Source of the DNA: Candidatus Roizmanbacteria bacterium CG_4_9_14_0_2_um_filter_39_13
Lineage (GTDB): Bacteria; Patescibacteriota; Microgenomatia; UBA1406; GWC2-37-13
Length of the DNA stretch: 34,786 nucleotides
Direction: 5' to 3'
Assembly: GCA_002788865.1 (NCBI GenBank)
Contig: PFSC01000156.1
Span: 1-34,786, forward strand
A program made the position numbers and the translations under genes. The stretch's first letter is position 1. Each line of letters starts with the position of its first letter. Positions 9,359 to 28,316 of this stretch are shown one piece after another. The notes under the pieces are model-generated. The model was not told where the DNA came from. It did not search any database and worked only from the letters and a program-made list of their open reading frames with translations.

Positions 9359-10216
9359 ATGATAAATAACAATTTAAACTCTTTGGCAATTTTTGAAACG
9401 TATAAAATACGTAGGCACTATGACAAAAAAACTGAAACGTGGTATTTCTCGATCATAGATATTATTGCGATTTTAATTGAACAGGATAATTTTAAAAAAG
9501 CTCAAAGTTATTGGACAACTCTTAAACATCGTCTAAAAAAAGAAGGGAATGAGTCTGTCACAAAATGTGACAAACTGAAAATGTTATCCGCTGATGGAAA
9601 ATATTACAAGACTGACGTGGCAAATGTAGAGATCCTTCTTCGCCTGATACAATCAGTCCCATCTAAAAAGGCCGAACCCATCAAGCTCTGGCTTGCAAAG
9701 GTGGGTTATGATAGAGTACAGGAAATGAGCGATCCAGAAAAAGCACTGAATCGGAGCCGTGACTATTGGCAAAAACAGGGGCGTAGCAAGAAATGGATAC
9801 AACAAAGAATGATGGGGCAAGAAACGAGAAACAAATTGACGGATTATTGGAGCGATCATAACGTGAAAAAAGGAGAAGAATTTGCAATTTTGACAAATAT
9901 TATTCATCAGGAGTGGAGTGATCTGTCTGTAAAAGGTCATAAAAACTTGAAAGGTTTGAAAACTCAAAATCTCCGAGATCACATGAGCGAAGAAGAGTTG
10001 ATTTTCACCGCCTTGGCGGAACTTTCAACAAGAAGAATTTCAGAAACGGATAAAACGGAAGGGTTGGAAGAAAATAAAATTCCCGCAAGAAAAGGTGGAA
10101 AAATTGCCAAAGATGCTCGTATTGCCTTGGAAGAAAAAATTGGACAAAGTGTAGTCACTGGGGAAAATTTTTTGCCACATTCAAGAAATCAAAAATCATT
10201 TAAGAAAAACAGCTAA
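9359..10216 (+). CDS. Bro-N domain / DinD-like (DNA-damage-inducible protein D family) protein
   Basis: 285 aa. The N-terminal LAIFETYKIRRHYDKKTETWYFSIIDIIAIL fits the Bro-N pattern (F..x..IR...d....WF...D....L). The C-terminal KGLKTQNLRDHMSEEELIFTALAELSTRR...KGGKIAKDARIALEEKIG resembles E. coli DinD. Confidence 0.6.
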   Translation: MINNNLNSLAIFETYKIRRHYDKKTETWYFSIIDIIAILIEQDNFKKAQSYWTTLKHRLKKEGNESVTKCDKLKMLSADGKYYKTDVANVEILLRLIQSVPSKKAEPIKLWLAKVGYDRVQEMSDPEKALNRSRDYWQKQGRSKKWIQQRMMGQETRNKLTDYWSDHNVKKGEEFAILTNIIHQEWSDLSVKGHKNLKGLKTQNLRDHMSEEELIFTALAELSTRRISETDKTEGLEENKIPARKGGKIAKDARIALEEKIGQSVVTGENFLPHSRNQKSFKKNS

Positions 10217-10437: not shown

Positions 10438-11637
10438 ATGGCAAACAAAAATCTTACAAATGCAAAACGAGAAAAGAACGATGAGTTCTATACGCAGTAT
10501 TCCGATATTCAAAAGGAGATTGAGGCGTATCTTGAATATGACCCTGATACCTTCAAAGACAAAGTCATCTACTGCAACTGCGACGACCCGTTTGAGAGCA
10601 ATTTTTTCCGCTATTTTGTACTAAACTTCAAGCGCCTGGGACTTAAGCAACTTATCACCACAAGCTACAAACCATCACCTGTAGCCAACACGCAACTAGC
10701 ATTGTTTGGTGACGATAAAACGCTCAAACCCATCAAAGGTCGTCCAAAAATCACGGCCAACAAATTTATCATTAACGATGTTGGCGATATGGATGGCGAC
10801 GGTGCGTTTAACTTGCAGGATATTGCCATGCAGCTCAAGGCCAACAAAAATAACGAGTGGGCGCCACTGGACGGTGACGGCGATTTCCGTAGCCAAGAGT
10901 GCATAGAGCTACTTCAGCAATCTGATATCGTCGTCACTAACCCTCCATTTAGTTTATTTCGGGAATATATTACGCAACTTTTCGCGCACAAAAAACAATT
11001 TCTGATCATTGGTAATCTTAATGCAATAACCTATAAGGAAATTTTTCCAATGATTAAAGGGAATAAGGTATGGCTCGGGAACAATGCAAGAGTTAATGGT
11101 GGTGCTATGTTCTATGAAATTCCAGAAGCTATTGCAAATCTCGATCAAGTTCGCGAAATCAAAACAAATGAACAAGGAAAAAAAATATATATAACAAGAG
11201 TGCAAGGCGTACGCTGGTTTACAAATCTCGATCACGGACGATTATATCAACCAATTCCTTTAATGACCGAGGCAGATGTAATAAAGTTCAGCACTAATAA
11301 ACTGTTCGTGCACTATGATAATTATGATGCTGTCGAAATATCCCTAGTCAAAAACATCCCGAAAGACTATAACGGAGTGATGGGTGTACCAATCAGCTTT
11401 TTAGACAAGTACTCCCCTAAGCAGTTTGAAATTTTAGGAACAAGTGATAATGGTCTCGTTGATGATAAATACAAGAAAACACCAGGTTTAACAAAAAAGT
11501 TTGTTGATGATTATTATAAAGATGGTGGTACAGGAGCATATAAAGAAGGTAATCCGACAGCTGGATACTATGAAAATAACGTCGCCAAGATGGCATATAA
11601 AAGAATTTTTATCAAGCACAGAAAGGAGAAATTGTGA
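10438..11637 (+). CDS. N6-adenine DNA methyltransferase, EcoRI-methylase-like family
   Basis: 399 aa. NAKREKNDEFYTQ N-terminus, VIYCNCDDPFESNFFRYF, GDGDFRSQECIELL and the catalytic motif IV DIVVTNPPFSLFREY. Confidence 0.8.
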   Translation: MANKNLTNAKREKNDEFYTQYSDIQKEIEAYLEYDPDTFKDKVIYCNCDDPFESNFFRYFVLNFKRLGLKQLITTSYKPSPVANTQLALFGDDKTLKPIKGRPKITANKFIINDVGDMDGDGAFNLQDIAMQLKANKNNEWAPLDGDGDFRSQECIELLQQSDIVVTNPPFSLFREYITQLFAHKKQFLIIGNLNAITYKEIFPMIKGNKVWLGNNARVNGGAMFYEIPEAIANLDQVREIKTNEQGKKIYITRVQGVRWFTNLDHGRLYQPIPLMTEADVIKFSTNKLFVHYDNYDAVEISLVKNIPKDYNGVMGVPISFLDKYSPKQFEILGTSDNGLVDDKYKKTPGLTKKFVDDYYKDGGTGAYKEGNPTAGYYENNVAKMAYKRIFIKHRKEKL

Positions 11638-12800
11638 TTACAACACTCCAAAAATACACAATACATGATGTCGTAGACGGATTCGTTTATAACGAACTGG
11701 AAGGCAAAGGACTGTTTGGACTTGCGGGTAAGCTCACTATCCAGCCGGAATATCAGCGTAATTACATCTACGCCGGTGACGGTGGCAAGCGTGAGCAGGC
11801 GGTTATTGAATCGTTATTGAAAGAGTACCCCATAGGTCTACTGTATTTTAACAAGGTTAGTGATGACAAGTTTGAAGTCCTTGATGGCCAACAGCGCATC
11901 ACTAGCGTAGGGCGGTTTGTAACCGGTAAGTTTGCGATCAAAGACGCTAATGGACACGAACAGTATTTTAGTGGGATGGCTCAAAGCCAGCGCGAAAAAA
12001 TAATGAACGCGTCGCTACTAGTATATGTTTGCGTGGGTGATGAGCCTGAGATTAAAGATTGGTTCAAAACCATCAACATTGCCGGTGTGCCACTAACTCA
12101 ACAAGAAATTCTAAATGCTGTTTACTCTGGACCATTTGTCACGCTTACCAGAGAAGAGTTCAGCAACAGCAATAACTCACTTGTCCAAAAGTGGAGTGCG
12201 TATATTGCTGGCGACATAAAGCGCCAGGCATATCTAGAGTGTGCGCTGAACTGGGTGAGCCACGGTGAAATTGACGCTTATATGAGCAAGCACCGCCACG
12301 ACCATGATATTACCGAACTGAAATCACACTTTACAAAGGTTATTGATTGGATATCTGGCGTGTTTACCGATGTTGAGAGTGAGATGAGGGGCTTGGAATG
12401 GGGCAGATTGTACGAAACGTATTATAAGCAAGACTATGACCCAGCTGAAGTTTCTCAACAAGTGCGCGAGCTCCTCAGTAGTTTTGAAATAAAAGATAGG
12501 CGTGGCGTGTTCGAGTATATCTTGGGTGGTTCGCAAGATACCAAACTCCTAAATGTGAGGGTATTTGACGAACCTACTAAGAAGGTAGTTTATGCTAAGC
12601 AAACCAAAATCGCTCAGACTAAGGATAAGTCCAACTGTCCATTGTGTGCTATCGGTCACGATGCTAACCACGAAAAAATCTGGAGCTTCAGCGAGATGGA
12701 TGCCGATCACGTCTCAGCATGGAGCAAGGGTGGTGAAACAAATATTGAAAACTGCCAAATGCTCTGCAAGACGCACAATAGGGCAAAAGGGAATCGATAA
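11634..12800 (+). CDS. DUF262 (ParB/Srx-like NTPase, GmrSD N-domain type) fused to an HNH nuclease
   Basis: 388 aa. IQPEYQRNYIY and LDGQQRITS are DUF262 hallmarks. The C-terminus CPLC...DADHVSAWSKGGETNIENCQMLCKTHNRAKG is a canonical HNH. The GTG start overlaps the methyltransferase stop (GTGA). Confidence 0.8.
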   Translation: MITTLQKYTIHDVVDGFVYNELEGKGLFGLAGKLTIQPEYQRNYIYAGDGGKREQAVIESLLKEYPIGLLYFNKVSDDKFEVLDGQQRITSVGRFVTGKFAIKDANGHEQYFSGMAQSQREKIMNASLLVYVCVGDEPEIKDWFKTINIAGVPLTQQEILNAVYSGPFVTLTREEFSNSNNSLVQKWSAYIAGDIKRQAYLECALNWVSHGEIDAYMSKHRHDHDITELKSHFTKVIDWISGVFTDVESEMRGLEWGRLYETYYKQDYDPAEVSQQVRELLSSFEIKDRRGVFEYILGGSQDTKLLNVRVFDEPTKKVVYAKQTKIAQTKDKSNCPLCAIGHDANHEKIWSFSEMDADHVSAWSKGGETNIENCQMLCKTHNRAKGNR

Positions 12801-12813
12801 GTGAACCAAAATT

Positions 12814-14421
12814 ATGATCTCACAAATTAACATTAAAAATTTTCGGTCTATTAAAGAGCTGAGGTTTGAGCCCAATAGCCTTACAGCTCTGATTGGTCCG
12901 AATAGTAGTGGCAAAACTAATGTTTTGAAAGCAATCGATTTAGTTTTGGGTGAAGGGTGGACGACGAAAGCTAAGGTTGCAAGAGAACTCTTTAACGACA
13001 CAACTAAATCTATTGAAATAGAGATTGTTTTTAACACACCAATTTCTGTTCCGAGCAATAGCGGTTATCGAGACACTGAAGTTTCAAGTGTTGAACTCAC
13101 AATGTCGTTAATTCCTGAATTATCAGCCAGAACAACAATAAATGGAGGCAGTACTTTTTACGGTCAGGAAACATTTAAGAAGTTATGTCATTTCATTTTT
13201 ATCACTTCAGACCGAAATTTGTCATCTGAATTAAGGGTAAGTCAATGGACTATGCTTGGGAAGATGATGAGGCTAGTTTATGAGAATTATGTTATTCATT
13301 ATGATAACAATGAACAAAAACTAAAAGACGAATTTAAAGAAAAAATGTCTCTGGCAAAGGAGTTTCTGGAAGACGATTTCTCTCAAGATATTACTTTTAA
13401 AAAATTTGTAGATACCTTTAAAGCAAAATGTAAAGAAAATAGTCTCGGACTTGCTTGTGATTTCGATCCTAGTCTGGATATCTATAACCTAAATTGGTTC
13501 TATAAAACACTGCAAGTTCATGTAAAGGAAGATATTCCCAATAAACACTTCGATAGTGAAGAGGTGGGCGCTGGGATGCAGAACTTGTTGATGATATCTA
13601 TCTTTCAAACATATTCAGAATTAATGGGAGGAAAGGTAATTTTTGGTATTGAAGAGCCAGAAATTTATCTATATCCACAAGCACAAAGATCACTATACAA
13701 AAGCTTTATCGAGCTGTCAGAAAATACACAAATCATATATACAACACATAATCCCAACTTTGTAAGTGCATATAGGGCTGATGATATTCTTTTACTCAGA
13801 AGGAGCTCTGAACTAGGGACTTACAAACTGAAAAAGGATGACTATTTTAACAGTGAGAACGCTGAAAATGATGGTGTTAAATATAAGATATACACTCATT
13901 TCAACGCGGAGAGAAATGAGCTTTTCTTTGCAAAGAAAGTATTGTTAGTCGAGGGGGCTTCAGACAAAATTTTGTTTACCACTTTGTGCGAAGAAAAATG
14001 GAATATAGACTTGGATGCACTTGGAATTTCGGTGATATCCTGTAGTGGAAAAGGTGGAGTCAATTATTTTCTGGGGGTCTGTAACTTAATTGGATTAGAA
14101 ACTTATTTTGCAGTATGGGACGAGGATCCAGAAGATAAAAGTTACAAACCAGAAAAGGATTTTTTACCTAACGTTTTAAGTAATGGTACCGGCCTAGAGG
14201 TCGCGGTGAATTTAGAATCATTTTTAGGTTTATCTAGTTCCAATGATTCAGGGAAAGTAAAAAACGCACACAAATGGGCGCTCGATGTCAAATTCGATGA
14301 AATCCCAGACGAGTTTCAAAAGCTAAAGGATTTTTTGTCTGAGGAGATTCCGGATATCGACAATAGCGAAAAATTAGAAGAACCTATGGCGTCAAGTACA
14401 GAAGATGATATACCTTTTTAA
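12814..14421 (+). CDS. OLD-family ATP-dependent endonuclease (ABC-type ATPase + TOPRIM)
   Basis: 535 aa. Walker A GPNSSGKT, signature-like VGAGMQNLL, Walker B IFGIEEPE and H-loop TTHNP. The TOPRIM domain has LLVEGASDKILF and WDED. The acidic C-terminal tail ends EDDIPF. Confidence 0.8.
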   Translation: MISQINIKNFRSIKELRFEPNSLTALIGPNSSGKTNVLKAIDLVLGEGWTTKAKVARELFNDTTKSIEIEIVFNTPISVPSNSGYRDTEVSSVELTMSLIPELSARTTINGGSTFYGQETFKKLCHFIFITSDRNLSSELRVSQWTMLGKMMRLVYENYVIHYDNNEQKLKDEFKEKMSLAKEFLEDDFSQDITFKKFVDTFKAKCKENSLGLACDFDPSLDIYNLNWFYKTLQVHVKEDIPNKHFDSEEVGAGMQNLLMISIFQTYSELMGGKVIFGIEEPEIYLYPQAQRSLYKSFIELSENTQIIYTTHNPNFVSAYRADDILLLRRSSELGTYKLKKDDYFNSENAENDGVKYKIYTHFNAERNELFFAKKVLLVEGASDKILFTTLCEEKWNIDLDALGISVISCSGKGGVNYFLGVCNLIGLETYFAVWDEDPEDKSYKPEKDFLPNVLSNGTGLEVAVNLESFLGLSSSNDSGKVKNAHKWALDVKFDEIPDEFQKLKDFLSEEIPDIDNSEKLEEPMASSTEDDIPF

Positions 14422-14454: not shown

Positions 14455-15741
14455 ATGAACGATATTATATGTCCACACTGTAAAAAAGTTTTTAAAGTTG
14501 ATGAAGCTGGGTTTGCGGATATCCTCAAGCAAGTCCGTGATCATGTATTTGACAAAGAACTACATGAACGATTAGAGCTAGCTGAAAAGGAAAAAGAGAA
14601 TGCTGTTAAGCTTGCAGAATCAAATCTTAAAAACACATTGCAGGCAGAATTGGCAAAGAAAGATAAAGAGTTGGCAGAGTTAAGAGCCGAAAATGATCGT
14701 AATCTTGCGGAGAAATTAGCAAAGAAGGAATCTGAGCTTGCTGAAATAAAGTCAAAACTTGATAAAACAGATGTTGAGAAGAAATTAAGTGTTACTGAAG
14801 CAGTAAAGAAAATTGAAAAAGAACGCGACAGTCTGGTTGGAGAGCTGAAAAGCAAAGAAACCGAGAAGCAATTGCTTGAAAAATCTTTACAGGAAAAGTA
14901 TTCCTCTGAACTCAAGACTAAAGACGACATTATCAAGATGAAAGATGATGAGATCGCCCTTCGTAAAGATATGAAATTAAAACTCAGTACCAAAATGGTG
15001 GGCGAGACTCTGGAACAGCATTGTGAGATCGAATTTAACAAGCTTCGCGCCACTGCCTTTCAAAGTGCCTATTTCGAAAAAGACAACGATTCAGCATCTG
15101 GAAGCAAGGGTGATTATATCTATCGAGAAACTGATAAGTCGGGTAATGAAATTATCTCGATCATGTTTGAGATGAAAAATGAAGGCGATGAAACTGCTAC
15201 CAAAAAACGTAATGAAGATTTTTTGCGAGAACTAGACAAAGATCGCACTGAAAAGAAATGCGAATATGCTGTTCTTGTTTCGCTTTTGGAAGCGGAAAAT
15301 GAATTATACAATACTGGTATTGTTGATGTCTCTCACAAATTTCAAAAAATGTATGTAATCCGCCCACAGTTTTTTATTCCAATAATAACTTTACTTCGAA
15401 ATGCAGCAATGAACTCTCTTAAATATAAGACTGAACTTGCTTTAGTAAAAAGTCAAAATATTGATATAACTAACTTTGAAGACAATGTTAATAAATTCAA
15501 AGAAGGGTTTGCAAAAAACTACGATCTAGCAAGTCGAAAGTTCAAAAATGCTATTGAAGAAATAGACAAAACCATTGACCATCTTCAAAAAACCAAAGAT
15601 GCCCTCCTGTCGTCAGAAAATAATCTTCGTATAGCTAATAATAAGACAGAAGATTTGACAATTAAACGGTTAACGCGAGGGAATCCTACAATGTCAGCTA
15701 AATTTGCAGAGCTTTCCGATTCCAATAAAACTATAGAATAA
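14455..15741 (+). CDS. DUF2130-like protein (Zn-knuckle, long coiled coil, C-terminal PD-(D/E)xK-like core)
   Basis: 428 aa. The N-terminus [24 protein letters not shown] is typical of DUF2130. About 170 aa of K/E/L-rich coiled coil follow, then GDYIYRE...[11 protein letters not shown] (D...ExK) and EYAVLVS, an RmuC-like architecture. Confidence 0.65.
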
Positions 15742-15799: not shown

Positions 15800-15828
15800 C
15801 CCCGAAGCAGAGCTTCGAGGAATTTTTT
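15800..15828 (+). terminator. putative intrinsic terminator after the DUF2130 gene
   Basis: ccCCGAAGC-aga-GCTTCGagg hairpin (15800-15820) followed by aaTTTTTT. Confidence 0.5.
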
Positions 15829-22223: not shown

Positions 22224-22265
22224 ATATGTGTTTATATTACATGGTAATTGTTGCACGGTGCAATG

Positions 22266-22475
22266 TCATTTTGCATAGCTTTCAAGAAAGCCACAGGATT
22301 TACAACGAAATGTAACTACTTTCGTATCATGATAATCCTCAGGCGTTGCTTTTCTGATTATTTTCTGCCCACTCTTCTTCCACGTTCCCTTTTGATCCCA
22401 CATTAGATTTAAGTAATCTGGAATAAACCCTTCCTCCATCCCTCCCTCACACTTCGGACATTTTTTTGTTTCCAT
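22266..22475 (-). CDS. small zinc-ribbon protein
   Basis: 69 aa with two CxxC pairs (CPKCEGG ... CKSCGF). No function recognisable. Confidence 0.55.
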   Translation of the reverse strand: METKKCPKCEGGMEEGFIPDYLNLMWDQKGTWKKSGQKIIRKATPEDYHDTKVVTFRCKSCGFLESYAK

Positions 22476-22517
22476 ATCTATAAATAAAAATGATAATTAT
22501 GCAATCCTCCATACAAT

Positions 22518-22621
22518 CTCCCTTTTGAAGGGAGCCCTCCGACGGTACGTCGGTGGAAGGGATGTACTCTTTGTTTTAAATAACATCCCCTGCCTTACAG
22601 GCACCCCCTTCCTGAAGGGGG
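22518..22621. other. GC-rich block of five consecutive hairpins (candidate structured RNA or novel repeat)
   Basis: The five hairpins are:
- CTCCCTT-ttg-AAGGGAG (22518-22534)
- CCGACG-gta-CGTCGG (22539-22553)
- GGGATGT-17 nt-ACATCCC (22559-22589)
- TGCC-ttaca-GGCA (22591-22603)
- CCCCCTT-cctg-AAGGGGG (22604-22621). Confidence 0.45.
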
Positions 22622-22633
22622 ATCTCGATATTT

Positions 22634-22789
22634 TCAGTCGTAACAACAGGGATCTTTGTAACCACAATTTGCACAGGTGGCATCCCGTCCCCCAGGCATT
22701 CCCTTGATCGTAAGCATGCCACACTCGGGACAGGGTCTCACATGAGATTTGTTGTCATCAGGTGTAGTCGAGGTTTTGTCAGAAATCAT
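22634..22789 (-). CDS. mini zinc-ribbon protein (51 aa)
   Basis: MISDKTSTTPDDNKSHVRPCPECGMLTIKGMPGGRDATCANCGYKDPCCYD has two CxxC pairs. The internal ATG at 22789 is chosen because the 80-aa form would overlap the ferredoxin gene by 77 nt. Confidence 0.45.
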   Translation of the reverse strand: MISDKTSTTPDDNKSHVRPCPECGMLTIKGMPGGRDATCANCGYKDPCCYD

Positions 22790-22799
22790 TGTAAGAAAA

Positions 22800-23078
22800 T
22801 TACTGAGGAAAAATCTTATTTCCGGCAGTATCTTCAATGATAATTGCAGCAGTTGGGCAAGCACGAGCACCATCAATTATTGCTTCGTTGGTGTCGTTTT
22901 CAGCAGTATCAAGAATGATAGCTTTTGCCTCTGAATCCATGACAAAGGTGTTTGGAGCAATCGCAACACAGGTTGCTGCGCCAATGCATAAATCGCGATC
23001 AACATGGAATTTCAAATCACGGACGGTGACCGGACCTGAAGGGCTTGATGGATTTTTTAAATTTTGATCGTCAGACAT
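22800..23078 (-). CDS. ferredoxin (single-cluster Fe-S type)
   Basis: 92 aa. The pattern DRDLCIGAATCVAIAPNTF ... ARACPTAAI matches small 3Fe/4Fe ferredoxins. It lies 9 nt downstream of sufU and near the oxidoreductase genes. Confidence 0.75.
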   Translation of the reverse strand: MSDDQNLKNPSSPSGPVTVRDLKFHVDRDLCIGAATCVAIAPNTFVMDSEAKAIILDTAENDTNEAIIDGARACPTAAIIIEDTAGNKIFPQ

Positions 23079-23087
23079 ATAAAAATA

Positions 23088-23444
23088 TTAAATTAGTAAT
23101 TTTCTTAAACCCTCCCAACTTAAAAGCGCACATTTCATTCGGTTGGGAGTAAGTTCTATGTTCAATAATCCTAACACATCATTGACACTTATTTCTAGTA
23201 GCTCTATTTTAGTTTTTCCTTTTGCATGTTCGGTAAGCATTGATGCTGACGCAATTGAGATTGCACAACCCTCACCGGTAAAACCAATTTCCTCAATGAC
23301 GCCATCTTTTTCACGAATTTCCATGTGGATCTTGTCCCCACACAACGGATTATCAAGATCAACTTTTGAAGTTGCTCCTTTTATCGAAGAATTGTTTCGA
23401 GGATTTTGGTAATGATCCAATATCATCTCAGCATAGATACTCAT
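23088..23444 (-). CDS. sufU: SufU/IscU-type Fe-S cluster scaffold / sulfur acceptor
   Basis: 118 aa. ILDHYQNPRN, NPLCGD and FTGEGCAISIASASM motifs. Confidence 0.85.
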   Translation of the reverse strand: MSIYAEMILDHYQNPRNNSSIKGATSKVDLDNPLCGDKIHMEIREKDGVIEEIGFTGEGCAISIASASMLTEHAKGKTKIELLEISVNDVLGLLNIELTPNRMKCALLSWEGLRKLLI

Positions 23445-23458
23445 ATTAAGTTTTTTTG

Positions 23459-24022
23459 TTAATTTATAGATTCATTCTTGTTAACAACAAACGGTGTTTT
23501 TAAATCTGCATTTACCATATGATTTCTATCTTTTTCTATATCCCATTTGATTGGATTATTTCTTATATATTCACGAATGTGAAATAATGATTTTTCGTTG
23601 CGGATAACGTGATCGTAAAATGATCGTTGCCATGCAAAATTTTCTAATCCATTTTGATGAATTATTTTTGATGATGTCGTTTTAAATGCCCCAATCAATT
23701 GCGATAATGGTTTTATTATTACCATACCCACCGTAGGGACAGGTCGCGACCTGTCCCTACCACGATCAATAACCAGAATCCCATGCATATGATTGGGCAT
23801 CACCACAAATTTGTCCAACATAATATATTCGTATTGATTGGACAACCATAACCACTGGTTTTCCACAATTTTCCCATAATCATTCAGTATCATTTCTCCA
23901 TTTTTTATTTTACCGAAAAATTCTTCCCGATCATTGATACAAATGGTGACAAAATAATACCCATTTTGAGAATAATCAAAATTCTTCAATCTATTTGATT
24001 TGCGGCGTATGAGATTCTTCAT
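23459..24022 (-). CDS. REP-associated tyrosine transposase (RAYT, IS200-like Y1 HUH family)
   Basis: 187 aa. YYFVTICINDREEFFG, HUH motif MPNHMHGILVI, and WQRSFYDHVIRNEKSLFHIREYIRNNPIKW with the catalytic-Tyr region. It is inserted between sufS and sufU. Confidence 0.8.
   Translation of the reverse strand: MKNLIRRKSNRLKNFDYSQNGYYFVTICINDREEFFGKIKNGEMILNDYGKIVENQWLWLSNQYEYIMLDKFVVMPNHMHGILVIDRGRDRSRPVPTVGMVIIKPLSQLIGAFKTTSSKIIHQNGLENFAWQRSFYDHVIRNEKSLFHIREYIRNNPIKWDIEKDRNHMVNADLKTPFVVNKNESIN
23733..23760. repeat. 28-bp perfect palindrome GTAGGGACAGGTCGCGACCTGTCCCTAC, copy inside the RAYT CDS
   Basis: Perfectly self-complementary. It is read in frame as (V)GRDRSRPVPT(V) just after the HUH motif, and is identical to 24058-24085. 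Confidence 0.95.
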
Positions 24023-26159: not shown

Positions 26160-27572
26160 ATGAAAGTTACTCGAGACAAACAAAAAGAAGATCTCAATTT
26201 TGACTACAAATACGGGTTTTCTATGCCTGAAAAATCATTTTACAAGGCAAAAAAAGGTCTTCGAGAAGATGTGGTCCGCATGATCTCCAAGATCAAAAAA
26301 GAGCCAGATTGGATGTTGGAGTTTCGTTTGAAGGCATACAAAATCTTTCTCGAAAAGAACATGCCAAAGTTTGGTCCCAGTCTTGAAAACATAGATTTTG
26401 ACAATATATATTATTACCTCAAGCCGACAGAAAATCAGGCCGATGCTTGGGAAGACCTTCCTGCAGAAATAAAAGAGACCTACGATCGCATTGGAGTTCC
26501 AGAGGCAGAAAAGAAGTTTTTGGCTGGAGTAAGTGCGCAGTATGAATCTGAAGTCGTATACGAGAGCGTAAATAAAGAACTGGCAAAAGAAGGTGTGATT
26601 TTTTGTGACATGGACACAGCTCTTCGTGAACATGAAGATATCGTGAAGGAGTATTTTGGAACCTTGATTCCTGCACATGACAATAAGTTTGCTGCATTAA
26701 ATAGTGCCGTGTGGTCTGGTGGATCGTTTGTATACGTTCCCAAAGGTGTGAAGGTAAAACTCCCCCTTCAAGCATATTTTCGAATTAATGCTGAGCGATT
26801 TGGTCAGTTTGAACGAACCTTGATAATCGCAGAGGAAGGTAGCGATGTACATTATGTCGAGGGTTGTACTGCGCCCATCTATACAAGTGAATCGCTTCAC
26901 GCTGCAGTTGTAGAAATATTTGTAAAAAAAGATGCTCATGTTCGGTATACCACGGTGCAAAATTGGAGCACGAACATTTACAATCTCGTGACGAAGCGAA
27001 CTCATTGTGGTGAAAATGGATTTATGGAATGGATTGATTGCAATATTGGAAGTGGCATAACAATGAAGTATCCAAGTGTATACCTCCATGGAGAAGGCGC
27101 TCGCGGAGAGGTACTTTCGATTGCCTTCGCTGGCAAAGGTCAGATACAAGATGCGGGTGCCAAAATGATGCATTTTGCACCAAATACAAGCTCGCGTATC
27201 GTGTCAAAGTCCATATCAAAAGACGGAGGAAGAACATCGTATCGCGGACTCGTGCAGGTTTCCCCTGGTGCCAAAAACTCAACAGTCTTTGTGTCGTGTG
27301 ATGCTTTGATATTGGACGAAGAATCTCGATCTGATACCTACCCAACGATGAAAATTAAGGAAAATGATGTCGAGATACAACACGAAGCAACGGTCGAAAA
27401 ACTCGGCGATGAGAAATTGTTTTACCTCAGGTCTCGTGGACTAAATCGAGCCGACGCTGAAAGTGCTCTCGTTCTGGGATTTATGGAGCCAGTGACCAAA
27501 AAAATTCCTTTGGAATATTCAATTGAACTAAATAGATTAATTAAGTTAGAGATGGAAGGGAGTGTGGGGTAA
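26160..27572 (+). CDS. sufB: Fe-S cluster assembly protein SufB
   Basis: 470 aa. [34 protein letters not shown] and HEATV..L..E.LFYL.SRG motifs. Confidence 0.92.
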
Positions 27573-27579
27573 TATTATT

Positions 27580-27728
27580 GTCATTCTGAGTAGGAGCGAA
27601 AGCGACGACCGAAGAATCCATGTATTGTCATGCTGAATTTATAGTTCAGCATCTTTGATCGATAGATCCTGAAACAAGTTCAGGATGACAGTGAGATACA
27701 TGGATCCTTCGCTCACGCTCGGGATGAC
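27580..27728. repeat. GTCAT-hairpin repeat cluster C (four units) filling the sufB-sufD spacer
   Basis: - 27580-27622: gtcattctgagtaggagcgaaagcgacgaccgaagaatccatg
- 27627-27652: gtcATGCTGAAtttatagTTCAGCAT
- 27665-27689: reverse unit gATCCTGAAacaagTTCAGGATgac
- 27699-27728: reverse unit catggatccttcgctcacgctcgggatgac. Confidence 0.85.
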
Positions 27729-27743
27729 AAAGAATAAATATAT

Positions 27744-28316
27744 ATGATATTTACAAACCTCAACAAAACCAAACAAGATCACATGACCTTTGATAAAAAG
27801 GGAGAAACCTATGTGGTCTTTTTTCACAATATTTCTGGGAAATTAACCTTTGATATTACCGCTCCAAACATTGAGCTGTACATATATGGATTATTTACCG
27901 GCAAAAATTCTGATGAATTTCATATTGAAACTATTCAAAGACATACTGCTCCAGGATCGATTTCTGACCTTTTTATAAAAGGAGTATTTCAAGATACGTC
28001 CAAATTCATTTACCAAGGACTCATTCGACTGGAAAAAGACGCACAACAATCTCATTCCTATCAAAAAAATCAAAACCTCATCTTGTCTCCTGGAGTATTT
28101 GTGGATTCTCGACCGTATCTGGAAATTTTGGCTAATGATGTATTTTGTACTCACGGATCGACCACTGGTAAGCTGAGTGCCGATCAACTACTATATGCTC
28201 AAACCAGAGGCTTGGATAACGATACTGCCCGAGACATGCTCGTGCAAGGATTTATCGATGAAGTCTACGATAGAGTGAAAGCCAAGGTTCCCACATTTGA
28301 GCCTCTTAAACAGTAA
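27744..28316 (+). CDS. sufD: minimal SufD (SufBD-domain protein)
   Basis: 190 aa. HTAPGSISDLFIKGV, SHSYQKNQNLILS and EILANDVFCTHGSTTGKLSADQLLYAQTRGL match the C-terminal half of SufD. Confidence 0.75.
   Translation: MIFTNLNKTKQDHMTFDKKGETYVVFFHNISGKLTFDITAPNIELYIYGLFTGKNSDEFHIETIQRHTAPGSISDLFIKGVFQDTSKFIYQGLIRLEKDAQQSHSYQKNQNLILSPGVFVDSRPYLEILANDVFCTHGSTTGKLSADQLLYAQTRGLDNDTARDMLVQGFIDEVYDRVKAKVPTFEPLKQ

Follow-up and report, generated by a model that had tools for sequence, protein, structure and literature searches.

The window analysed here, a 34,786-nucleotide stretch of DNA (positions 1-34,786 of contig PFSC01000156.1, assembly GCA_002788865.1) from Candidatus Roizmanbacteria bacterium CG_4_9_14_0_2_um_filter_39_13 (GTDB lineage Bacteria; Patescibacteriota; Microgenomatia; UBA1406; GWC2-37-13), encodes a stand-alone OLD-family nuclease whose chain ends in a disordered, acidic tail with the terminal residues D-D-I-P-F, matching the C-terminal tip of SSB, the bacterial protein that binds single-stranded DNA. 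This tip is retained by most of the closest homologues of the nuclease, across many phyla. A full-text literature search, with the ABC-ATPase classification of Krishnan et al. 2020 outside its coverage, turned up no account of an SSB-tip-like tail for OLD or other defence proteins, and the Class 1 OLD papers examined and a 2023 review (PMC10568477) are silent on such a tail. The tail is a conserved, and apparently undescribed, feature of a known kind of defence nuclease. On balance it is somewhat probable that it acts as a docking peptide of the SSB C-terminus (SSB-Ct) type, binding in trans to the SSB-Ct pockets of host or phage genome-maintenance proteins.

The nuclease core and its C-terminal tail

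The folded part of the protein is that of an OLD-family nuclease. Pfam models for ABC-type ATPases cover the first ~320 residues (AAA_15, 2.3e-37; AAA_21, 4.7e-20; SMC_N), an OLD-like TOPRIM domain (PF20469, 3.7e-17) covers residues 371-438, and PADLOC calls the protein 'Old' (2e-46). The nearest solved structure by sequence is the Class 1 OLD of Thermus scotoductus (PDB 6p74, 2.9e-48), with the structures of GajA far weaker (4.7e-12), and 6p74 is also the first Foldseek match (E 5e-30) of an AlphaFold2 monomer model built from a 120-sequence alignment (mean predicted local distance difference test score, pLDDT, of 82). An earlier reading of the window from its letters alone (the sequence-only reading) had named the protein an OLD nuclease, and Pfam, PADLOC and 6p74, by sequence and by fold, all bear this out.

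Residues important for catalysis were followed through the 120 best homologues (57-100% identity to the window protein), which come from many phyla and include sequences from Patescibacteria, Saganbacteria, Ignavibacteria, Chloroflexota and one bin labelled Bathyarchaeia. Within the ATPase, G33 and K34 of the Walker A motif GPNSSGKT (residues 28-35), E280-E283 of the Walker B region and H312 of the H-loop are invariant or nearly so; within the TOPRIM domain, E380, G381 and D436 are invariant and D438 almost so. With the lysine of Walker A, the glutamates of Walker B, the histidine of the H-loop and the acidic positions of TOPRIM kept in this way, the window protein looks active, and it is predicted to be an ATP-dependent nuclease with a part in anti-phage defence. 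With ATPase and TOPRIM on one chain, it is assigned to the OLD family and, by gene content, to Class 1: its neighbours are a methyltransferase, an HNH endonuclease and a DUF2130 protein, none of them a UvrD/PcrA-like helicase (as in Class 2) or a retron reverse transcriptase or non-coding RNA (as in Class 3). Neither a UvrD/PcrA-like helicase nor a reverse transcriptase is found among the recurrent neighbour families annotated across the 105 OLD loci (L001-L036 and L081-L148) that were collected for neighbour clustering.

The AlphaFold2 model sets the tail sharply apart from this core. The ATPase region has pLDDT >90, with loops 140-152 and 225-233 as the exceptions, helices are modelled at residues 478-491 and 499-509, and pLDDT stays at ~94 as far as residue 510. 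The globular protein ends at the last helix, and orthologues without a tail stop there. Residues 510-535 have pLDDT ~35 and no secondary structure, and they lie undocked in a monomer model that is uninformative on docking between protomers. The translation of the open reading frame (ORF) ends ...FLSEEIPDIDNSEKLEEPMASSTEDDIPF*, and the C-terminal end of the 535-residue protein, as read from the ORF, is ...KDFLSEEIPDIDNSEKLEEPMASSTEDDIPF. The tip is encoded by gat gat ata cct ttt at positions 14404-14418, followed by the stop codon taa at 14419-14421, and F535 is the final residue. Ten of the last 27 residues are acidic and one is basic, for a net charge of about -9. The sequence-only reading had described such an acidic extension, capped by a match to the SSB tip, at 14338-14421; its coordinates and sequence are exact, corresponding to residues 509-535 plus the stop codon, and the composition and low pLDDT agree with the description.

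In E. coli the C-terminal tip of SSB is DDDIPF and recruits at least 17 partner proteins, according to two reports (PMC5872125, PMC10018359). The two proteins share their last five residues and the position of these at the end of the chain, and also an overall plan, in which an oligomeric folded core is followed by a variable disordered linker and an invariant acidic Pro-Phe tip, often with a hydrophobic or aromatic residue upstream, as in MDFDDDIPF. They differ in the core, which in the window protein is a nuclease (ABC ATPase plus TOPRIM) and in SSB an OB-fold binder of single-stranded DNA, and in the linker, which is short and acidic in OLD and long and Gly/Gln/Pro-rich in SSB. Because the window protein has no OB-fold, and no OB-fold or SSB Pfam match, it is not an SSB, and the likeness is confined to the tail.

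The sequence-only reading had staked its proposal on the tail being kept among orthologues, and this is clearly the case. PF ends 82 of the 120 closest homologues, 72 of the 120 end in [DE][ILVM]PF and 53 in [DE][DE][ILVM]PF. All 82 tailed proteins have P at -2 and F at -1; I or L stands at -3 in 88% of them, and D or E at -4 in 91% and at -5 in 71%, with a hydrophobic residue often present at -8 or -6. Measured from L508 to the chain end, and thus with the tip, the tail of these proteins has 11-39 residues (median 25), and the median of its net charge is -6; the linker, which is what remains once the five tip residues are taken off, has an abundance of E, N, I, D and S and is conserved in neither sequence nor length. 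By our own arithmetic with typical residue frequencies, a random C-terminus would fit [DE][DE][IL]PF with p ~4e-6. The window and the loci collected at that stage served as an internal control: of their 1337 distinct ORFs with 100 or more residues, 45 end in [DE][ILVM]PF, and 44 of the 45 are OLD orthologues, leaving a single such end among ~1290 non-OLD ORFs. On these figures the match to the SSB tip is judged to lie far beyond chance, with conservation as the decisive evidence, and the alignments point to strong purifying selection on the tip only. Searches of all PDB sequences with the 27-mer (phmmer) and with a hidden Markov model of 50 tails gave no matches, the motif being too short for HMMER.

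The history of the tail is one of repeated loss. On a neighbour-joining tree built from the globular part of the close homologues, the tailed state is ancestral in the close clade and is followed by ~24 state changes, nearly all of them losses; by this reconstruction the tail has been lost about 20 times independently. Homologues without it end a median of 4 residues past L508, and no relic tip lies downstream of the stop codon in the 34 tail-less loci scanned. Tailed orthologues occur in Patescibacteria, Gammaproteobacteria, Fibrobacterota, Saganbacteria and other groups; by locus, 7 of 10 from the Patescibacteria group (candidate phyla radiation, CPR) are tailed and 9 of 10 Bacteroidota genome loci are tail-less. 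Farther out, an exhaustive search of cluster representatives yielded 125 full-length OLD-family representatives (27-59% identity), of which 23 end in xPF, for example EDDDLPF, EDDDIPF, DEDIPF and WDDLPF, in several subclades and with ~15 state changes.

Two of the distant proteins deserve separate mention. P0230, a 592-residue OLD-family protein from a metagenome, has the C-terminus ...AYPFDDDIPF, which comes close to the whole SSB-Ct nonamer of E. coli, and the tip is absent from all 118 of its closest relatives (37-42% identity). Its clade had been considered as a second case of clade-wide tip conservation and was dropped, none of the 118 relatives being tipped; the tip of P0230 is probably an isolated, independent gain. 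Mycobacterial SSB ends ...EPPF, and the metagenomic representative P0182 (563 residues) ends ...DFVDAGPPPF, which could be a host-matched variant of the tip.

Echoes of the tip also occur inside the tail. In the window protein the start of the tail, EEIPD (14341-14355), echoes the terminal DDIPF, and comparable internal echoes are seen in the homologue P0044 (QDDIPN...PDDIPF) and in that of locus L030 (LDDIF...EDDIN..PDDIPF). The pattern suggests that part of the tail was duplicated in tandem or, alternatively, that the tail has a pair of weak binding units like MDF-DDDIPF in SSB.

A tip of similar kind was met on a protein of another family. In a metagenome-assembled genome of Chitinophagaceae (JANNSN010000047.1; L033:7711-8721, + strand), a 336-residue TIR-domain protein (TIR_2, 9e-9) encoded directly downstream of a tail-less OLD orthologue ends ...SNDIIEDLPF. 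Among 120 homologues of this protein, mostly from Bacteroidota, 30 end in PF, often as ...D[DS]LPF (EEDDSLPF and EEEDLPF are examples), and in most other members a short, often acidic tail has W or F as its last residue. A second defence-type family, unrelated to OLD, thus seems to have SSB-style tails with an aromatic end, a hint that the phenomenon may be broader than OLD.

Possible receptors of the tail

From the anatomy of the tail we infer that a stand-alone Class 1 OLD, usually found with restriction-modification (R-M) operons, acquired a modular SSB C-terminus, consisting of a disordered acidic linker and a [DE][DE][IL]PF tip with a free carboxylate. The tip would act as a short linear docking motif, entering a pocket made of a hydrophobic hole and a basic rim. 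Candidate pockets in the host would be those of exonuclease I, RecJ, RecQ, PriA, RecO, primase and the clamp-loader chi subunit; candidates in phage would be those of proteins that must bind the SSB of the host, single-strand annealing proteins among them. The enzyme would display two to four tails, much as the SSB tetramer does, because OLD proteins form dimers or tetramers. Docking would bring the nuclease to, or switch it on at, SSB-dependent DNA sites such as forks, gaps and resected ends, including the restriction-generated ends of invading DNA. In one version the tail would recruit the enzyme to host partners (exonuclease I, RecJ, RecQ, PriA), an arrangement that would make sense beside R-M systems, whose cuts those enzymes process; in another, the tail would be captured by phage proteins that need the host SSB tip.

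Several observations argue for docking of this kind. An invariant tip on a variable linker is the pattern of the SSB C-terminus itself, and thus supports an SSB-type docking tail. No single encoded protein goes with the tail across the OLD loci, and because the tail is nevertheless kept across phyla, its receptor would have to be universal in the hosts or in their phages. The docking code of SSB is nearly universal in bacteria, so that the module would keep working as the gene crosses phyla. The return of the tip in several deep OLD subclades, the reliance of phage recombinases on the C-terminus of host SSB and the aromatic-ended tails of the TIR family count in favour of docking as well. The many state changes, the lack of relic tips and the lack of any globular residue that tracks the tail (see below) fit an add-on module for targeting or sensing better than an essential internal latch.

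Other observations weigh against it. About one third of the close orthologues, nearly all the Bacteroidota ones among them, lack the tail, which therefore is not required for the core function of the enzyme, and the experimentally studied Class 1 proteins P2 Old (ending ...EDFIKWI) and E. coli YbjD (...ARGRAD) are without the tip. Five residues make a short match, and another receptor for an acidic, Phe-ended tail is conceivable. Simple hitch-hiking to SSB-coated DNA is not straightforward, because a partner whose single pocket holds the OLD tail excludes SSB. Finally, the SSB tip with which the OLD tip was compared is that of E. coli.

A special case of docking in trans, which we regard as a tentative possibility, is that the tail serves as an integrated decoy: SSB-hijacking phage proteins, among them annealing proteins, Orf-like or other replication and recombination mediators and phage replication proteins, would grab the tail, destabilize an inactive OLD oligomer and so cause the nuclease to fire. 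Phage recombinases and annealing proteins do depend on the host SSB C-terminus (PMC6393309, PMC13490951), and a phage SSB-like protein with an identical tip controls another defence system. The downstream step would be plausible from a 2026 preprint on P2 OLD, which describes an autoinhibited tetramer that fires when destabilized and that senses single-stranded DNA structures and events at phage recombination loci, the loci to which its triggers and inhibitors map. Arms-race modules, moreover, typically show patchy gains and losses such as those seen for the tail. However, the known triggers of P2 OLD work through RecBCD inhibition and single-stranded DNA hairpins rather than SSB, on a protein that has no tail, and a low-copy decoy would be out-competed by thousands of genuine host SSB tails.

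The C-terminal tails of SSB, T7 gp2.5 and T4 gp32 fold back on their own OB folds. By analogy, the tail could act in cis or within the oligomer, as an acidic DNA mimic lying in the DNA-binding groove of the nuclease until displaced by activating DNA or protein, a reading that we consider unlikely. Such fold-back is established for SSB-type tails, the OLD tail is strongly acidic in the window protein and its homologues alike and is long enough to reach any protein surface, and a Class 1 OLD is known as an autoinhibited oligomer (P2 OLD preprint). Against this, the AlphaFold2 monomer leaves the tail undocked, docking from protomer to protomer lying outside that model, and strict invariance of P-F-COOH implies a specific pocket and not bulk electrostatics. 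A Fisher test on each alignment column, tail-plus against tail-minus proteins, found no co-evolving pocket: the top columns, T361, R329 and C392, reflect the signatures of two clades, tailed members being included in one of these, and the consensus of the tailed proteins is kept at each top-ranked position by ~20 proteins that became tail-less independently. That the tail has been lost repeatedly in nature is likewise hard to square with the safety catch of a toxic nuclease. The evidence thus leans, though not decisively, against obligatory autoinhibition in cis.

It is less probable still that the tail binds something other than an SSB-Ct pocket, whether the OB fold or condensates of SSB, the receptor of the FtsZ C-terminal peptide, a protease adaptor (with the tail as degron), or the products of the adjacent R-M or DUF2130 genes. 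The literature does have the SSB tip contacting the SSB OB fold and driving condensation. R-M genes abut OLD at most loci, but the neighbouring systems are of the unrelated types I, ISP, II and III, and therefore offer no common R-M partner. The FtsZ tail contains D-I-P-x-F and so resembles the OLD tip; mimicry of this peptide was set aside, since FtsZ has an extra residue between P and F and its motif is internal, whereas all 82 OLD tails stop at PF.

DUF2130, which the sequence-only reading had called a partner protein and proposed to test for binding to the tail peptide, was rejected as the receptor of the tail. Three related contexts have the gene next to OLD, as does one distant prophage lineage. 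Within the close clade and beyond the window, it follows OLD only in the relatives P0002 (87% identity) and P0003 (84%) (loci L081-L085 and L094), where by the gene calls it starts 3 nt past the OLD stop codon, and where the upstream R-M genes and the downstream genes are unlike those of the window. A tblastn search of 35 genome and ~60 metagenome loci with the DUF2130 of the window met it only beside these orthologues, and it is absent from the other ~95 OLD loci, ~60 of which are tailed. On IMG/VR viral contigs DUF2130 lies, with a 2-nt gap, directly after a tip-less 626-residue OLD of 23-26% identity (L151-L153, L160, L164); L155 has it too, behind an OLD that the end of the contig truncates. 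On other contigs of this kind it directly follows a type III Mod-Res R-M pair (L150) and a SMODS/AGS_C gene (L163). In the lineages where the two adjoin, OLD and DUF2130 are a candidate two-gene module, so far undescribed. Because it is found after unrelated defence modules, DUF2130 behaves like a non-specific last gene of defence operons, at their 3' end, and it may itself be a defence gene, accessory or stand-alone, that is as yet undescribed; the domain has been placed in the PD-(D/E)XK superfamily (PMC3424549).

That the tail is a chance, functionless low-complexity extension is barely credible: the motif is short and the tail biased in composition, but the terminal PF, the acidic residues at -4 and -5 and the I or L at -3 are kept in the tailed close orthologues and the tipped distant representatives while the linker drifts, and the rarity of such ends among other ORFs of the same loci effectively refutes the idea along with this conservation.

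Genomic setting and related systems

The tailed OLD gene of the window stands among other genes of defence (Table 1). The order Bro-N, methyltransferase, endonuclease, OLD and DUF2130 is co-directional and tightly packed; the methyltransferase and endonuclease form a type II R-M pair (10438..12800) directly upstream of OLD, the endonuclease ending 13 nt before it, and DUF2130 begins 33 nt downstream. The sole terminator-like hairpin on the + strand, at 15803-15817, lies 3' of DUF2130, in a scan that did not rise above chance. Because the flanks hold housekeeping genes (glycosyltransferases, FemAB, Lon, POR, Suf, TsaD and FtsH), the block from Bro-N to DUF2130 can be taken as a small defence island in a low-GC chromosome. 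The Bro-N protein at its 5' edge matches the PADLOC candidate defence family PDC-S13 nearly end to end (1.6e-115).

Table 1. Features of the OLD gene and the surrounding defence genes (window coordinates)
Feature	Coordinates	Strand	Basis
Bro-N domain protein, 5' edge of the island	9359..10216	+	PADLOC PDC-S13
EcoRI-like N6-methyladenine (m6A) methyltransferase	10438..11637	+	Pfam EcoRI_methylase 3e-120; PADLOC MTase_II
GmrSD_N + HNH endonuclease	11634..12800	+	Pfam GmrSD_N 1.4e-20, HNH; PADLOC REase_II
OLD-family nuclease gene, 535 aa, stand-alone Class 1	12814..14421	+	ORF, Pfam, PADLOC, PDB, Foldseek
ABC ATPase region, residues 1-360, with inserted helical dimerization region	12814..13893	+	Pfam SMC_N, AAA_15
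TOPRIM nuclease domain, residues 371-470	13924..14223	+	PF20469, conserved acidic residues
Final folded helices, residues 478-509; last helix IPxEFxxVKxFL	14245..14340	+	AlphaFold2, tail-less homologues
Disordered acidic linker, residues 510-530, EEIPDIDNSEKLEEPMASSTE	14341..14403	+	AlphaFold2, homologue comparison
C-terminal tip D-D-I-P-F, residues 531-535, then stop	14404..14418	+	Sequence; SSB-Ct consensus DDDIPF
DUF2130 protein (zinc ribbon, coiled coil, PD-(D/E)XK-type domain)	14455..15741	+	Pfam DUF2130 8e-86

Association with R-M genes recurs across this clade. Recurrent neighbours across the 105 OLD loci include type ISP/HsdM-type methyltransferases (28), HsdR (20), type III Mod (20) and Res (6), Dam-type methyltransferases (13), a serine recombinase (10) and an AlwI-type endonuclease (8). 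An R-M gene lies within 4.5 kb of OLD in at least 48 of the 74 loci of at least 6 kb (at least 65%), and R-M genes often abut OLD or share overlapping stop and start codons with it. The presence of the tail shows no association with R-M adjacency, an R-M neighbour being found at 33 of 48 tailed and 13 of 23 tail-less loci. The 2023 review (PMC10568477) describes the genes of Class 1 OLDs as isolated, a picture contradicted by this clade, which is an accessory of R-M operons.

With the Class 1 proteins of T. scotoductus (6p74), P2 (Old), Vibrio cholerae and E. coli (YbjD), the window OLD shares the absence of a helicase, a retron and a separate TOPRIM partner, and, as noted above, its best match in sequence and fold and its conserved catalytic residues. 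It differs in its 26-residue disordered acidic tail ending in DDIPF, which P2 Old and YbjD lack, and, from Class 1 as described in the review, in the position of its clade within or abutting R-M operons. The other OLD classes are set apart from it as well: the window OLD has no adjacent GajB UvrD-like helicase, unlike Gabija GajA (Class 2), whose TOPRIM region also has a helical insert, and it carries ATPase and TOPRIM on one chain, unlike PARIS (Class 4).

The sequence-only reading had mentioned an OLD-containing retron system that responds to phage SSB, and this is correct: it is Retron-Eco8, whose Class 3 OLD effector is activated by phage SSB. The two systems would have in common an OLD-family nuclease whose firing is tied to SSB, a tie that for the window OLD is proposed; they differ in OLD class and in that the window OLD has no reverse transcriptase or non-coding RNA partner. 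To sensing by way of the SSB tip the retron lends no support. In Retron-Eco8 phage SSB is detected by way of msDNA, which the OB fold of SSB binds, the C-terminal tail of SSB being dispensable, and the parallel is therefore superficial.

A different comparison is offered by latent nucleases of the PrrC/RloC type, in which an ABC-type ATPase is joined to a nuclease in type I R-M loci. Shared with the window OLD are the fusion of an ABC-type ATPase to a nuclease in or beside an R-M operon and, plausibly, a role as a second line of defence. The window OLD differs in that its effector is a TOPRIM domain and not a HEPN anticodon nuclease, and the R-M partners of its clade are of many unrelated types.

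Two further observations concern the housekeeping part of the window. A 187-residue ORF at 23459-24022 (- strand), amid housekeeping genes, has a weak, partial match to an IS200-like Y1 transposase (3e-5), and the adjoining interval of ~22260-23460 holds no ORF of at least 120 residues. At 26160-28316 (+ strand) a full-length SufB/D (470 residues) is followed by a 190-residue ORF whose match to the SUFBD core is confined to the C-terminal part of that core and which may be a truncated or split SufD.

Significance for Class 1 OLD proteins

Whether stand-alone Class 1 OLDs associate with other proteins is a question that the 2023 review raises (PMC10568477), and a conserved docking peptide of the SSB type provides a concrete hypothesis for how these enzymes find their targets or sense infection. 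If docking in trans is borne out, the tailed OLD would connect directly to the SSB interactome, a central hub of genome maintenance that many phages exploit, as the first immune effector known to do so, and the near-universal docking code of SSB would explain how a single-gene defence module works across distant phyla. Should the tail act as a decoy, it would be a bacterial counterpart of the integrated decoys of plant NLR proteins, with mimicry of the SSB tip as a portable sensing module. If, as the TIR proteins hint, the motif is a general add-on, new defence proteins could be searched for by their C-terminal mimicry of the SSB tip. For this clade, the view of Class 1 OLDs as isolated genes gives way to that of an accessory of R-M operons.

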